DNA of 64,000 bases from Candidatus Kaiserbacteria bacterium (GTDB lineage: Bacteria; Patescibacteriota; Minisyncoccia; Phycocordibacterales; Phycocordibacteraceae): assembly GCA_023269035.1 (NCBI GenBank), contig JAHFMJ010000002.1, forward strand, positions 12,671 through 76,670. The letters run 5' to 3'. The notes below the pieces were generated by a model that did not search any database, was not told the origin of the DNA, and saw only the letters and a list, made by a program, of their open reading frames with translations. Each line of letters starts with the position of its first letter. The stretch's first letter is position 1. Shown here piece after piece: positions 22,921 through 38,222 of the stretch. The position numbers were made by a program, and so were the translations under genes.

Positions 22921-22971
22921 GCGGCCGCATGAAGCGGCCTTTTTTGTTCCTCGCAAACCAGTTCGTTGACA
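22921..22971 (+). promoter_or_regulatory. terminator hairpin plus CGTTGACAAC promoter-like module upstream of 23S
   Basis: gcggccgc-atgaa-gcggcc followed by TTTTTT, then cgTTGACAac. The same hairpin-plus-CGTTGACAAC arrangement recurs upstream of the 16S at 35841-35887. Confidence 0.4.
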
Positions 22972-23024
22972 ACACATCACAAAGAGAACACCGAGCATAA
23001 TTAAGTAAACGTGAAATAACGTTT

Positions 23025-26000
23025 GTGGTTTTCAGGCTTCCTCGTGGAAGTCTGAAGGGTGTGTGGTGGATGCCTAGACTCTATATGGCGATGAAGGACG
23101 CGGCCTGTCTGCGAAAATTTTCGGGGAGCTGATGAGCAAGCTTTGATCCGGAAGTGTCCGAATGGGGAAACCCTCTCGACTCTACGTCGAGAATCTTTGC
23201 AGGGTTGTAAAGAAGCAAACCTCGGGAAGTGAAACATCTCAGTACCGAGAGGAAAAGAGACCAACCGATATCTCGGTCTCTGCGCTAATGCTTTAGCACA
23301 GGGACCGGGATTCTGGTATTCCCTAAGTAGCGGCGAGCGAAAAGGGAGCAGCCTAAACCGTATTCAGCAATGGATGCGGTGTTGTAAGGCGGCGGCGTTC
23401 CATTTATGGAAGGAGAGTGACAAAGGGAAATCATAACCGGATCTGCTGGGAAGCAGAGCCCCAGAGGGTAATAGCCCCGTAGGTGAAATGAGTTCCTCTC
23501 TCTTGCTGCCGATCTTGAGTAATCCGAGACACGAATAGCTTGGATGAACCCGCCGGAACTAACCGGCAAGGCTAAATACGTATAGAGATCGATAGTGAAC
23601 CAGTACCGTGAGGGAAAGGTGAAAAGAACCCCGGAAGGGGAGTGAAATAGATCTGAAACCACACATCTACAAGGAGTCGAAGAGGATTTATTCCTCGACG
23701 GCGTGCCTATTGAAGAATGAGCCGGCGAGTTTACGCACACGGCGTGGCTAAGTCCTTTATCGGATGGAGCCGAAGGGAAACCGAGTGTGAATAGCGCGTT
23801 TGTCGCGTGCGTAAGACCCGAAGCCAGGTGAGCTTGTCATGAGCAGGGTGAATCCCGCCGAAAGGCGGGAGGAGGCCCGAACCCGTTGGTCGTACAACGC
23901 CTTGGGATGACTTGTGACAAGGAGTGAAAAGCTTATCGAACCTGGTAATAGCTGGTTCTCTCCGAAACAGCTTTTGGGCTGGCGTCTGATGTATCTCCCG
24001 GGGGTAGAGCACTGGAAGGGTCAAACAGGGAGCAATCTCGTTGACCCTATCAAACTCCGAATACCGGGAAGTTTTGTCAGGCAGTTAGACGATGGGGGCT
24101 AAGCTCCATACGTCGAGAAGGGAAGAGCCTAGATCTCAAGTTAAGGTCCCTAAATTCGCACTGAGTGCATCACAAGGAAGTGAAGGTTCTAAGACAGTGA
24201 GGATGTTGGCTTAGAAGCAGCCACCATTTAAAGAAAGCGTAACAGCTCACTCATCGAGAACTTTTGCGCCGAAGATAATCGGGGCTAAGTGCGGTACCGA
24301 AACTGAGGATGCGATTTCGATTCGTCGAAATCGCGTGGTAGGAGAGCGTTCCAAACCGCGATGAAGGATAAGGGGTGACCCATTCTGGAGCGTTTGGAAG
24401 TGAGAATGCCGGCACAAGTAACCACAATGCGGGTGAGAACCCCGCACGCCGAAAGACCGAGGTTTCCTTGGCACTGATAATCAGCCAAGGGTTAGTCGGG
24501 CCTAAGCAAATGGCGAAAGCCGAACGCGATGGACACACGGTTAATATTCCGTGACCTCGCGCTCATGCGATGAAATGACGGAGTGCTGTATCTGCTGCAC
24601 ATTATTGGATTTGTGTTTGTACCGTGAGGGCGCGTCTTCAGGAAAATCCGGGACGCATCACCCCGAGCGGAGCATCAATGCGCTGGTTCGCCAGTGTAGA
24701 GAGCAGAGAGCGCGCTTCCAAGAAAATCTTCTAAGCATAATGAGCGTGAGACCGTACCGCAAACCGACACAGGTGGTCTGGTCGAGTAGACCAAGGCGAA
24801 CGAGTGAGAGGCCCTCAAGGAACTCGGCAAAATAGCGGCCGTAACTTCGGAATAAGGCCTGCCTCCTCTTAAGTGAGGAGGCCGCAGCGAAAGATTCCCA
24901 ACCGACTGTTTATCAAAAACACAGCTCCCTGCGAACTCGCAAGAGGATGTATAGGGGGTGACACCTGACCAATGCCAGAAGGTCAACTAAGGTTGGTACG
25001 GGGCAGCAATGCTTCGTGCTGGACTTTATAAGCCCTGGTCAATGTCGGCGATAACTATAATCGTCCTAAGGTAGCGTAATTCCTTGTCTGGTAAGTTCAG
25101 ACGTGCACGAATGGTGTAACGAGTTGGGAACTGTCTCGAGGGCTTGCTCGGTGAAAATACAATACCGGTGAAGATGCCGGTTACTCATAGTTAGACGAAA
25201 AGACCCCAGAAGCTTTACTGTAGCTTCGTATTGGGATTATGATTCATCCGCGTAGAATAGATGGGAGAGGTTGAAGCAACGATTTCGGTTGTTGTGGACT
25301 CGTCAGTGCAATACCATCCTGATTCGTCGTAATTTCTAACCTCGGGAAAAACACCCGGGAGACAGTGCGTGGCAGGCAGTTTGAGTGGGGCGCTCTCCTC
25401 CCAAAAAGTAACGGAGGAGCCTACAAAGGTCAGCTAGGCGCGAATGGAAACCGTGCCGGTCGTGTAATGGCACAAGCTGGCTTAACTGCGAGACGTACAT
25501 GTCGAGCAGACACGAAAGTGGAGCATAGTGATCCGACCCTTTGCATTAGATGCGGGGGAAGCTCAACGGACAAAAGTTACTCTGGGGATAACAGGCTGGT
25601 TCCGCCCAAGCGTCCATAGCGACGGCGGAGTTCGGCACCTCGATGTCGGCTCACCACATCCCGGAGCTGGAGAAGGTTCCAAGGGTTTGGCTGTTCGCCA
25701 ATTAAAGTGGTACGCGAGCTGGGTTCAGACCGTTCAGTTGCTGAAATACTTCGGCGCTTGAACCGTCTGAACCCATATTGAGAGAAGTGTTATCTGAAAA
25801 GTATAAAAGGTTTTTTCGTCGCAAAAAAGAAAGTTAAGACACAACCATCACGGCGGTTCTGCATAGGAATGTGCAGAAAGAAATCGACTAATATCGGTAG
25901 AACCCCACCAGGGGCAATACCGAGGGAAGCAGGCAGCTTGCTAACGCAACTGCACTTGGATTTTCTAAAGCGGAGACGCTTAAGAAAATCTCGGCGCCCG

Positions 26001-26390
26001 TAGAGACTGAATGTCGATCACCCTGAGTATGTCGAAGGGTGAAGTTACAGTCCGATCCTTTCGGTAACGGAAGAAAACGAAATGCGTGAGACAGGTTGGT
26101 CTCCTATCTACTATGAGCGTTGATACTTGAGGAGAGTCGTCCTTAGTACGAGAGGACCGGGATGAACTGACCTCTGGTCTACCTGTTGTTCCGCCAGGAG
26201 CATTGCAGGGTAGCTATGTCGGGAAGGGATAACCGCTGAAAGCATCTAAGTGGGAAGCCTCCTCCAAGATTAGGTATCGTTAAGGCCCGTGAGAGATGAT
26301 CACGTTGATAGGCTCCAGGTATACAGACAGTAATGTCTTCAGCCGAGGAGTACTAATTCGCCGATCTTCTGCGGGGAAGTTTGAGAACCA
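23025..26390 (+). rRNA. rrl: 23S ribosomal RNA (intron-containing; ends approximate)
   Basis: The conserved 5' domain (…GGUGGAUGCCUAG…GCGAUGAAGGACG…CCGAAUGGGGAAACCC) and 3' domain (…GGAUAACCGCUGAAAGCAUCUAAGUGGGAAGCC…) are present. Flanking sequences 22982-23000 and about 26391-26412 are reverse-complementary (gagaacaccgagcataatt / aattatgctcggtgttctc), giving an RNase III-type processing stem. Confidence 0.9.
25734..26084 (+). other. group I-like intron inserted in 23S rRNA domain V (about 351 nt, no ORF)
   Basis: The conserved exon sequence GGUACGCGAGCUGGGUUCAGACCGU | CGUGAGACAGGUUGGUC is interrupted by about 350 nt. The 5' exon ends in U and the insert ends in G. A segment about 30 nt into the insert (ccgtctgaaccc) is complementary to the 5' exon end (gggttcagaccg), resembling a P1/IGS pairing. 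Confidence 0.55.
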
Positions 26391-26443
26391 TATAATTATG
26401 CTCGGTGTTCTCGGTGTGATGTGTTGATACGTTGAGTGTTCAG

Positions 26444-37498: not shown

Positions 37499-37676
37499 TG
37501 CGGAAAACATCTCTCCGAGATTCGTCTCGAAGGATTTATCCGGTCGATTGCCGAAAGGCAGAGTGATGATGTATGACTCTAAACAACATCCGGCACGCAG
37601 ATTGCCGAAACTGCGATAGGCGGAACAGAAGAAAGGGAAGAGCTCTTGGTCACTCTGGTTTGGAAATTCCAGGGAT

Positions 37677-37997
37677 TTACTCGTCTATTTCAGTGTATTT
37701 GATGCGAGGACAATCGGAATGGTAGTGCTTACCATGGTCATCCTCGACGGGGATATTTTTAGTATCGTAAAGCTTGAGTTCGTACTCGTCTATGACGTAG
37801 CTGTTTATCCATTTCTTTAATCCAAAGATCGTATGGCGGCATGACGGACTATCGCAATAGACAGCTGTCTTGTCCCTGCCCTGTTCATCTTTCCCGTGCT
37901 TCCTTTCGGAAACGCGGACTATGTCAGGGCGCTCGTGGCCTGATGCGAATCTCGCATTCATTTTCAGCATAATAACTTCAAAATCATCTTTTGTCAA
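37677..37997 (-). CDS. hypothetical small Cys/His-rich protein in the AT-rich 16S-tRNA spacer
   Basis: 106 aa (…CDSPSCRHT…HGKHYHSDCP…) in a low-GC context between the 16S 3' end and tRNA-Ile. No recognised family. Confidence 0.35.
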   Translation of the reverse strand: MTKDDFEVIMLKMNARFASGHERPDIVRVSERKHGKDEQGRDKTAVYCDSPSCRHTIFGLKKWINSYVIDEYELKLYDTKNIPVEDDHGKHYHSDCPRIKYTEIDE

Positions 37998-38147
37998 AGA
38001 GCTTTTTCTTTGTTTTTAAGGCCTTATTTTGCTAATATCACAGCACGCAGGAAAGAGTATGGCGAGTGTAAACATCGGGCTGCGCCCTCGTTTTCGCTCG
38101 CTGCGCTCCGGAAGAATGAAAGCCAGCTTTCATTCTCTCCCTCGCTT

Positions 38148-38222
38148 GCGAGCGTAGTTCAGTGGTAGAACGCTGTCCTGATAAGACAGAGGTCGAAGGT
38201 TCGATTCCTTCCGCTCGCACCA
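38148..38222 (+). tRNA. tRNA-Ile (anticodon GAU), CCA encoded
   Basis: Cloverleaf: acceptor GCGAGCG/CGCUCGC, D-arm GUUC-AGUGGUA-GAAC, anticodon stem CUGUC/GACAG with loop CUGAUAA, T-arm GAAGG-UUCGAUU-CCUUC, discriminator A, then CCA. Confidence 0.9.

Follow-up and report, generated by a model that had tools for sequence, protein, structure and literature searches.

We analysed the organisation of the ribosomal RNA (rRNA) genes in a 64,000-nt stretch of contig JAHFMJ010000002.1, assigned to a Candidatus Kaiserbacteria bacterium; this whole stretch will be referred to as the window. The rRNA genes lie in two separate units on the same strand (Table 1): i) a 23S-5S unit, in which the 23S gene carries a group I intron; and ii) a 16S gene, followed about 650 nt on by the gene for a transfer RNA (tRNA), tRNA-Ile(GAU). 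The end of the 5S gene and the start of the 16S gene are 9.5 kb apart, and between them lie nine housekeeping genes that encode: a membrane protein of unknown family, RodA/FtsW, a GT4 glycosyltransferase (minus strand), a sugar transferase, an epimerase, FolD, SecD, SecF and a protein of the amino-acid-kinase family (minus strand). The 16S and 23S genes are thereby unlinked as defined by Brewer et al. (same replicon, more than 1.5 kb apart, and no 23S within 1.5 kb 3' of the 16S). Each of the two spans its whole Rfam model, and the rest of the genome lies outside this 64-kb window. Searches with Rfam and ARAGORN recovered neither a tRNA-Ala nor a second 23S gene 3' of the 16S-tRNA-Ile pair, where a terminator and protein genes are found instead.

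Conservation of the split layout

The original prediction had described the usual rRNA operon as split and permuted into the order 23S-5S ... 16S-tRNA-Ile, and had named a check of the assembly, a mis-assembly and a comparison with related genomes as the points that would decide the matter. The order and the lack of a following tRNA-Ala or 23S gene stood up, and the genes proved to be of full length and on a common strand. Linkage across 26.6-36.0 kb is confirmed by an independent, separately assembled MEGAHIT contig from the European Nucleotide Archive (L001; 10,757 nt), which equals window positions 25407-36163 with 1 mismatch in 10757 nt and spans the inside of the 23S gene, the intron, the 5S gene, all nine intervening genes and the first 122 nt of the 16S gene. 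Three contigs from other runs also overlap with this stretch in part.

Relatives were collected with a FolD-based scan, taking one genome per GTDB species, which gave 80 loci (L numbers in the following), the nearest with a FolD identity of 63-71%. Nearly all of these derive from metagenome-assembled genomes of the Patescibacteria group (Paceibacterota/Parcubacteria groups), many of the third-party-annotation records being labelled Saccharibacteria. A planctomycete origin, which the short 5S and the unlinked genes might suggest, was discarded since the FolD scan gave Patescibacteria/Paceibacteria alone. The rRNA segments of the window were then compared to the loci by BLAST. The 23S/5S genes upstream and the 16S gene downstream of FolD, on the same strand, were recovered in 30 of the 80 loci, with a distance between 5S end and 16S start of 9.6-16.0 kb (median 12.6 kb). 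Only one side was seen in further loci (the 23S/5S side in 24, the 16S side in 8). Twelve of these 24 have the full 10 kb downstream and no 16S gene in it, which places the 16S further off or elsewhere; the remaining one-sided loci mostly reach the contig end, and the 18 loci with neither side are mostly short contigs. No rRNA match on the opposite strand was found among the 80 loci. Long contigs show the layout as well: both units are on L005 (831 kb) and on L046 (496 kb, gap 12.9 kb), and in L010 (a 749-kb contig) the examined locus ends inside the 16S gene. In ten relatives tRNA-Ile(GAU) follows 215-2172 nt 3' of the 16S gene, often with tRNA-Leu(CAG) next to it, as in the window. Since the same layout recurs across the relatives, it is an old inherited synteny block of the class and not a peculiarity of this genome. 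The split layout is the norm for the class Paceibacteria within the Candidate Phyla Radiation (CPR): a genuine arrangement and the ordinary inherited state of a large class.

An artefact of assembly or binning, or a set of extra partial copies beside a canonical operon elsewhere, might come to mind because rRNA genes are well known as places where short-read metagenome assemblies break or are joined wrongly, and many of the related contigs do end inside an rRNA gene. Against it stand the full length of both genes, the independent assembly from the 3' part of the 23S and the 5S to the 5' part of the 16S, and the fact that 30 species-level genomes, drawn from many studies and including contigs of 0.5-0.8 Mb, repeat the order, the strand and the intervening genes. 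CPR genomes moreover usually have one copy of each rRNA gene. We regard this explanation as very improbable and, as far as an artefact is concerned, as effectively refuted already.

Brewer et al. (bioRxiv 10.1101/705046) have already described unlinked rRNA genes as a trait that Patescibacteria share as a clade. The locus shares with the unlinked genes of Deinococcus-Thermus, Planctomycetes, Rickettsiales, Helicobacter and Patescibacteria a distance of more than 1.5 kb, a 23S and 5S that stay together, and clade-wide occurrence. It differs from the general case in that the units are close (9.6-16 kb), lie on one strand with 23S-5S first, and enclose conserved genes such as FolD-SecDF; a limited literature search returned no paper on this specific 23S-5S/FolD-SecDF/16S synteny. 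On a circular chromosome the layout would most simply, we infer, have arisen by tandem duplication of a 16S-tRNA-Ile-(tRNA-Ala)-23S-5S operon together with some intervening genes, after which the 16S part of the first copy and the 23S part of the second would have been lost reciprocally. Each surviving unit would then keep its own boxA (see below), as is observed. A translocation is equally possible. In practical terms, amplicon approaches that span 16S, internal transcribed spacer and 23S will miss this class, contigs of these genomes break at predictable places, and the 23S-5S / FolD-SecDF / 16S block is a handy synteny marker.

Table 1. Features of the two rRNA units and their surroundings, by position in the window
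Feature	Positions	Strand	Basis
Gene upstream of the 23S-5S unit, mechanosensitive-channel-like	22030-22737		Pfam match
Terminator-like hairpin of the upstream gene, AAAAGCCCC-TTTA-GGGGCTTTTTT; marks the start of the 23S-5S unit	22757-22781	+	
Sigma-70-like promoter of the 23S-5S unit, TTGACA-17-TACACT	22825-22853	+	Promoter scan, 10/12 matches
Candidate leader mini-ORF, ATG AGT ACT AAC ACC AAA GGC ACC TAG = MSTNTKGT*	22867-22893	+	13 nt past -10
Predicted antiterminator, GCGGCT (22893-22898) with GGCCGC (22923-22928, 5' arm of the terminator), small hairpin enclosed	22893-22928	+	Minimum-free-energy fold of leader
Terminator-like (boxB-position) hairpin of the 23S leader, GGCCGC-ATGAA-GCGGCC + T6	22923-22945	+	-13.0 kcal/mol
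BoxA-like element of the 23S leader, CAGTTCGTTGACAAC; 10-mer at 22964-22973	22959-22973	+	Conserved 5' of 23S across class
23S leader-trailer helix, 5' strand	22970-23003	+	Flank duplex prediction, -96.8 kcal/mol
23S rRNA gene, full length, intron-interrupted	23043-26375	+	Rfam RF02541, 2402 bits, model 1-2925 of 2925
Group I intron, 351 nt, no ORF, peptidyl-transferase region of 23S	25734-26084	+	RF00028; intron-less relatives
23S leader-trailer helix, 3' strand	26393-26426	+	
5S rRNA gene, 108-nt short form	26445-26552	+	RF00001, 75.8 bits
Terminator hairpin closing the 23S-5S unit, then TTTTG	26570-26609	+	-21.4 kcal/mol, z = -4.1
Nine intervening housekeeping genes	26626-35698	mixed	Pfam; same genes on independent contigs
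Sigma-70-like promoter of the 16S unit, TTGACT-17-TAGTAT	35718-35746	+	Promoter scan
Terminator-like (boxB-position) hairpin of the 16S leader, GCCGAGGC-AAAA-GCTTCGGC + T5	35841-35865	+	-14.7 kcal/mol, z = -3.7
BoxA-like element of the 16S leader, GCTCGTTGACAACTGAAT; 10-mer at 35880-35889	35877-35894	+	
16S leader-trailer helix, 5' strand	35978-36020	+	Duplex, -89.8 kcal/mol with 37591-37645
16S rRNA gene, full length, no intron	36042-37500	+	RF00177, 1364.6 bits, model 1-1533 of 1533
16S leader-trailer helix, 3' strand	37591-37645	+	
Small Cys/His-rich ORF (MNARFASGHERP...CDSPSCRH...HYHSDCP), 106 aa, between 16S and tRNA-Ile	37677-37997	-	
tRNA-Ile(GAU)	38148-38222	+	Rfam + ARAGORN
Terminator hairpin 3' of tRNA-Ile	38225-38242	+	-13.4 kcal/mol

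A probable boxB/boxA-type module in both leaders

Both units are preceded by a short module in which a GC hairpin with a T-run is followed by the 10-mer CGTTGACAAC. This 10-mer occurs exactly twice in the 64 kb, for about 0.1 exact copies expected of a 10-mer on two strands, and each copy is found 14-18 nt past the hairpin and T-run. In the relatives the hairpin of the 23S leader is kept with wobble and compensatory changes, AGCTTCGGCTTTTT in the hairpin of the 16S leader is invariant in six of them, and the motif takes the form [GA][TA]TC[GT]TTGA[CA]AA[CT]TG. The order of the elements is conserved too: promoter, leader, hairpin with T-run (in most lineages), 14-35 nt, the motif and the 5' strand of a long helix. 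Promoter, hairpin with T-run, a TTCGTTGACAA-like motif and stem follow one another 5' of the 23S gene in 12 lineages, and the same order, with the T-run hairpin present or not, was found 5' of the 16S gene in about 25. The window copies GCTCGTTGACAA and AGTTCGTTGACAA correspond to GATCTTTGAAAA, GAACTTTGAAAACTG and similar sequences that stand in equivalent places 5' of both genes in the relatives. For the comparison to boxA made below, the window has GCUCGUUGACAA 5' of the 16S and AGUUCGUUGACAA 5' of the 23S, relatives have GAUCUUUGAAAAUUG and GAACUUUGAAAACUG, and the motif reads GUUCGUUGACAAC as RNA.

The flanks of each rRNA gene can pair over a long distance. Those of the 23S gene form 20 perfect base pairs (22984-23003 / 26393-26412), an AA/GG internal loop and 12 more base pairs (22970-22981 / 26415-26426), plus an inner helix; a processing stem of 19 bp had been predicted here, and the duplex prediction returns it in longer form. 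This helix starts within the motif (TTGA-CAAC...). L008 and L009 have CAACTCATC in the 5' strand in place of CAACACATC of the window, with GATGTGTTG changed to GATGAGTG in the 3' strand, a compensatory change from A-U to U-A, and in L060 base pairs form between the motif (CGTTGACAATCG...) and CGGTTGTTGACG of the 3' flank. In the 16S helix, the 5' strand contains TTTCTTCTGTTCCG, which is invariant in relatives. These structures are like the RNase III leader-trailer helices known from pre-16S and pre-23S rRNA in their near-perfect flank pairing (at least 32 bp for the 23S, about 40 bp for the 16S) and in the compensatory change seen in relatives; compared to known processing helices they show nothing unusual, and the 5S and tRNA-Ile lie outside them. 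Because the motif overlaps the 5' strand of a covarying helix it must be present in the RNA, and because the motif region pairs with the 3' trailer, transcription must start further upstream. Two adjacent hairpins, CCCGAC-GTAAAAA-GTCGGG and CCCCGAC-CTAGG-CGTCGGGG, lie between the boxA-like element and the 16S helix (35937-35978) and were also seen in L006; they may be equivalents of the leader helices hA/hB or of boxC.

The promoter scan recovered a sigma-70-like promoter 110-160 nt upstream of CGTTGACAAC in each leader region. These two are the only good promoter-like sites there and their hexamers are invariant in close relatives: TTGACA and TAnnnT of the 23S promoter do not vary in L005, L008 and L009, a promoter of the same type occupies the same place 5' of the 23S gene in L015, L019, L048, L060 and L080, and the type TTGAC[GT]-N17-TAGTAT is found 5' of the 16S gene in about 20 relatives. 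Judged by these consensus matches, the upstream promoters would drive both units.

In the rrn operons of Escherichia coli a boxB stem-loop is followed by AGCGGCAC and then by boxA, UGCUCUUUAACAAUUUA (PMC2724277); the boxB-boxA set stands before both the 16S and the 23S, and leader-trailer helices flank each rRNA (PMC10250234). The leaders in the window have a similar plan: a stem-loop and then a single-stranded motif that is first U-rich and then of AACAA type, after the promoter and again before the 23S, with the leader-trailer helix following directly on the motif. Both the 16S and the 23S are preceded by this conserved motif, which is about 12 nt long and resembles UGCUCUUUAACAA, and the covarying helix that it overlaps as well as the consensus promoters upstream place it on the RNA. 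Unlike in E. coli, where boxB abuts boxA and has no U-tract, the GC stem-loop 5' of the motif (present in most lineages) is followed by a U5-U7 tract and a spacer of 14-35 nt, and the two sets sit on separate transcripts. The 16S copy GCTCGTTGACAACTGAAT also matches 15 of the 18 positions of GTTCTTTGAAAACTGAAT, a conserved primer site in the 16S-23S spacer of Mollicutes, which we take to be a boxA.

We consider it probable that the two rRNA units have been inherited on one strand some 10 kb apart and that the module is a transcribed leader signal of the boxB/boxA type and not a promoter. As boxB and boxA precede both the 16S and the 23S in ordinary operons, the two copies are more likely to be retained leader and spacer signals than the outcome of a duplication at the time of the split; the shared motif would be the usual rRNA antitermination signal and no evidence of a duplicated promoter. 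Transcription of the first unit would run from its promoter through the leader, the 23S with its intron and the 5S to the closing terminator, that of the second from its own promoter through the leader and the 16S. By analogy, Nus factors may bind the boxA-like motif: as in E. coli rrn, it would recruit NusB/S10 and turn RNA polymerase into an rRNA antitermination and assembly complex, while lying at the base of the long helix that would bracket each rRNA for processing.

Several observations weigh against this interpretation. The leader hairpins carry U5-U6 tracts and are as stable as true 3' terminators, unlike the boxB of E. coli, which has no U-tract; since Rho-dependent terminators are reported to be the only ones on which antitermination of the rrn type acts (PMC2724277), the analogy to boxB/boxA alone leaves a strong intrinsic terminator upstream of boxA unexplained. 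The match to the boxA of E. coli covers 9-10 of 12-13 positions, which is short enough to occur by chance in a single sequence, so that the argument rests on its conserved position across lineages. No nusB, nusA, nusG or S10 gene was found in a search of the 64-kb window, and the start sites are placed by consensus matches only. The synteny is not universal either: L011 and L024 have full 10-kb flanks and no rRNA gene near FolD. Neither leader yielded a riboswitch or a known leader element in Rfam scans (E up to 10), which returned only chance matches driven by the terminators (isrD, frnS). In L031 (at about 12006), L046, L050, L060 and L077, the hairpin of the 16S leader (ACTGCC...GGCGGT with a U-rich tail) lies right at the predicted start, directly past the -10. 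At that position in these distant relatives it cannot terminate transcription from upstream, and it looks like a 5'-terminal stem of boxB type; hairpin and U-tract are thus kept even there.

The original prediction had read the modules as promoter/insulator units duplicated at the split; in such a model the hairpin and T-run would be an insulating terminator and CGTTGACAAC the -35 region of the real promoters. The hairpin with T-run and the identical 10-mer before both units were recovered as described. TTGACA is indeed a perfect -35 consensus, the T-run sits where a distal UP element would be and could act as one, and the hairpins are as strong as true terminators. However, no -10 hexamer (A2, T6) was found 16-18 nt past CGTTGACAAC at either site and the promoter scan calls neither; the nearest CATAAT past the 23S motif lies at 24 nt in the window and at 29 nt in L005, so the spacing is not kept. 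A start past the motif would, moreover, lose the 5' strand of a 32-bp helix with compensatory change, which in L060 includes the motif, while well-conserved full promoters lie upstream and the two modules share no sequence beyond the 10-mer and a generic GC hairpin. As a -35 box, TTGACAAC was rejected, having no -10 at the right spacing and lying within a transcribed helix, and we find the duplicated-promoter explanation very improbable. Slightly less so, and still unlikely, is that promoter, leader and hairpin with T-run form an independent tiny gene, for a small RNA (sRNA) or a micropeptide, and that the rRNA is transcribed from an unrecognised non-consensus promoter between T-run and helix or by leak-through. 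A promoter, a transcript of 90-115 nt and a strong intrinsic terminator do make up the anatomy of an sRNA gene, and the weak similarity to sRNA terminators is the sole signal from Rfam. The 14-35 nt between the T-run and the transcribed motif are nonetheless too short for a promoter and hold no -10-like hexamer with A2 and T6; in L031, L046, L050 and L077 the 16S hairpin at the predicted start leaves no room for a gene; and the interior of the 23S leader is conserved in architecture and not in sequence, which argues against an sRNA with a conserved seed.

A candidate attenuator in the 23S leader

The leader of the 23S-5S unit contains, between promoter and T-run, a mini-ORF (open reading frame) and a potential terminator/antiterminator pair, which looks like the one new lead of this analysis and deserves follow-up. 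We compared 13 leaders from the -10 to the T-run: those of the window, L005, L008, L009, L015, L019, L040, L048, L060, L072, L080, L083 and L087, the last two coming from a pattern scan of metagenomes that returned 6 loci with 2 new sequence types. The -10 was placed by eye in L040 and L072. A mini-ORF of 8-14 codons is present in 13/13 leaders, its ATG or GTG lying 8-14 nt past the -10 where a consensus promoter could be parsed (the GTG of L040 is closer). The encoded peptides are: MSTNTKGT (window), MSTNFKGTKRQ (L087), MSTYTKGTMRR (L083), MSTNTKDAMRS (L005), MSTNTRGEMRR (L008/L009), MMKTYNQQEKSGD (L019), MITTKKLLT (L048), MNTTRKDSRKRSG (L060), MFKTNQSTRRR (L080), MNSIKKIISKKRP (L015), MVSLRSFTKWHR (L072) and MSTKANEPTRLERK (L040). 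Some of them (MFKTNQ..., MMKTYNQ...) may resemble the N-terminus of ribosomal protein L34, but are too short for a test of this likeness.

A segment of GCGG type, 38-44 nt past the -10, mimics the 3' arm of the terminator; it can pair with the 5' arm (CCGC) and encloses one or two variable hairpins. This antiterminator pairing is predicted in 12/12 leaders folded and is part of the full-length minimum-free-energy fold in 7, that of the window included. The flanking pairs vary: GCGGC:GCCGC in the window, GCGAC:GTCGC in L008, GCGGTGA:TCACCGC in L019, AGCGGCC:GGCCGCT in L015 and GCGGTT:AACCGC in L060. In all 13 leaders, the stop of the mini-ORF comes within about 10 nt of the GCGG strand. The strand that pairs best with the terminator 5' arm has its end 43-49 nt past the -10 in every case (shuffle test on pairing energy, Fisher combined P=4e-4), and 10 of 11 leaders contain a mini-ORF of this kind, for a chance of 3-21% each in shuffled sequences. 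Just 3' of GCGG there is a conserved TAR, and in 7 of 8 independent lineages an RTG in the same frame leads to it without an intervening stop (chance 2.5-19.5% each; Poisson-binomial P about 2e-8, with criteria set post hoc). The criteria of these shuffle tests were set after seeing the data, which makes the P values optimistic. In the close family (6 sequences), covariation was not significant: all cells of the antiterminator and terminator helices are paired, with only one double change per helix (173/500 and 80/500 shuffles).

The architecture of mini-ORF and antiterminator, found in 13/13 leaders from at least eight independent Paceibacteria lineages, suggests that the 23S leader could be a translation-sensing transcription attenuator with a leader peptide, a reading that we put forward tentatively and would call possible, short of probable. 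A ribosome at the stop of the mini-ORF would cover GCGG, whereupon the terminator would form and transcription would stop before boxA and the 23S; in an untranslated leader the antiterminator would fold first, and polymerase would run on to boxA, so that 23S-5S is made. Translation of the mini-ORF is plausible in this organism because its 16S rRNA has no CCUCC, Shine-Dalgarno (SD) motifs are not enriched and leaderless genes are present (see below). The predicted arrangement is like the trp, his and pyrBI attenuators and the erm/cat-type sensors in that a short ORF runs up to the 5' strand of a helix, and this helix competes with an intrinsic terminator. Unlike in those systems, an rRNA would be the gene under control, and the putative ORF is nearly leaderless and has no regulatory codon runs.

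Some features speak against attenuation. The window ORF is cut by a TAG where relatives read AAG or ATG, although in this case the stop lies right against GCGG; the ORF of L048 is out of phase; and two of the starts are GTG at a nearly leaderless position. The 16S leaders hold no equivalent: their ORFs differ inconsistently between close relatives, in many lineages their hairpin lies directly past the start site, and that of the window folds with the terminator intact. A limited literature search returned no description of leader-peptide attenuation of rRNA. If the attenuator is real, rRNA transcription would be gated directly by translation of a leader peptide, a direct feedback of ribosome availability on rRNA synthesis in bacteria that have no anti-SD and mostly leaderless mRNAs. 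It would bear on how ribosome synthesis responds to ribosome capacity and on the way in which slow-growing, SD-less bacteria with single rRNA gene copies balance their unlinked 16S and 23S genes.

Intron, translation signals and neighbouring genes

The 23S gene is about 400 nt longer than its Rfam model, and most of the excess is a single intron insertion. Its core matches RF00028 over 25839-26074 with 40.1 bits and E=5.5e-8, below the gathering score of 50; for the match to model positions 1-253 the E value is 7e-9. The limits in Table 1 follow from intron-less relatives, which align up to 25733 and resume at 26085. The exon junction is AGACCGU|CGUGAGACAG; the 5' exon ends in ...CCGU and the intron in ...AAAUG, and with the core match, an exon ending in U and an intron ending in G, group I splicing is predicted. 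We take the site to be E. coli U2593/C2594, the homing site of I-CreI (Cr.LSU). Like bacterial and organellar 23S introns at the presumed I-CreI site and the rRNA introns of CPR bacteria, the insertion has an Rfam group I core and a patchy distribution among relatives; it differs from them in being short (351 nt), in having no homing-endonuclease ORF and in scoring below the Rfam gathering threshold. About 14 related loci have the intron at this site, and others lack it. Relatives also have insertions elsewhere, about 200-1000 nt long, in the 23S at window-equivalent positions of about 25072, 25400, 25590 and 25640 and in the 16S at about positions 457, 730 and 1328; the loci with such extra insertions are L005, L012, L014, L022, L036, L038, L040, L048, L050, L054, L072, L074 and L076. 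This patchy intron content fits what has been described for rRNA introns of CPR bacteria by Brown et al. 2015, in so far as that work is cited in PMC9297842.

The 3' tail of the 16S rRNA (37480-37500) reads GGAACAATTCC instead of GGATCACCTCCTT and has no CCUCC anti-SD. Tails of relatives read GGATTCATTCC, GGAACATATCC and similar (L014, L019, L021, L022, L025, L028, L038, L040, L046, L048, L060, L061, L072 and L080), and the anti-SD is absent throughout the clade. Both the short 5S rRNA and the missing anti-SD tail have been published for a Parcubacteria subgroup (PMC9297842). SD-like motifs upstream of 50 window genes are not enriched (14%, against 14.3% in random 17-mers). A -10-like hexamer (TATAAT, TATTAT or TAGTAT) lies 6-8 nt before the ATG at the gene starts 661, 35698 (minus strand), 61629 and 37961 (minus strand), which makes those mRNAs leaderless and suggests that leaderless mRNAs are widespread. 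The L10-L7/L12 genes (20439-21295) are preceded by a gene for a tetratricopeptide-repeat protein (19168-20076) and not by L11-L1. This context may fit the published overlap of lineages that have neither an anti-SD nor uL1; L1 could lie elsewhere in the genome.

The tRNA-Ile gene is where a remnant of the ancestral spacer tRNA would lie. Between it and the 16S gene are the 3' strand of the 16S helix and an ORF on the minus strand that has a strong promoter of its own; the tRNA is probably no longer co-transcribed with the 16S and probably forms a separate unit. A weak extended -10 candidate, TGCTAATAT, was spotted by eye 5' of the tRNA-Ile, near 38027-38035. The intervening ORF, small and rich in Cys and His, has a near-perfect promoter (TTGACA-17-TATTAT, 37997-37969 on the minus strand) with the ATG at 37961, and its mRNA is probably leaderless. 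Neither a Pfam family nor a homolog in the 80 related loci was found for this ORF, which may be a lineage-specific or mobile insertion.

Adjoining tRNA-Leu(CAG), a gene on the minus strand (41669-43423) encodes a protein of 584 aa that has a SET (lysine methyltransferase) domain, unusual for bacteria, at its C-terminus. Two plus-strand genes encode proteins that look secreted or surface-located: one of 1169 aa (15586-19095), in which only a peptidoglycan-binding domain was recognised, and one of 622 aa with a DUF11 repeat (661-2529). Both may be cell-surface or host-interaction proteins typical of CPR.

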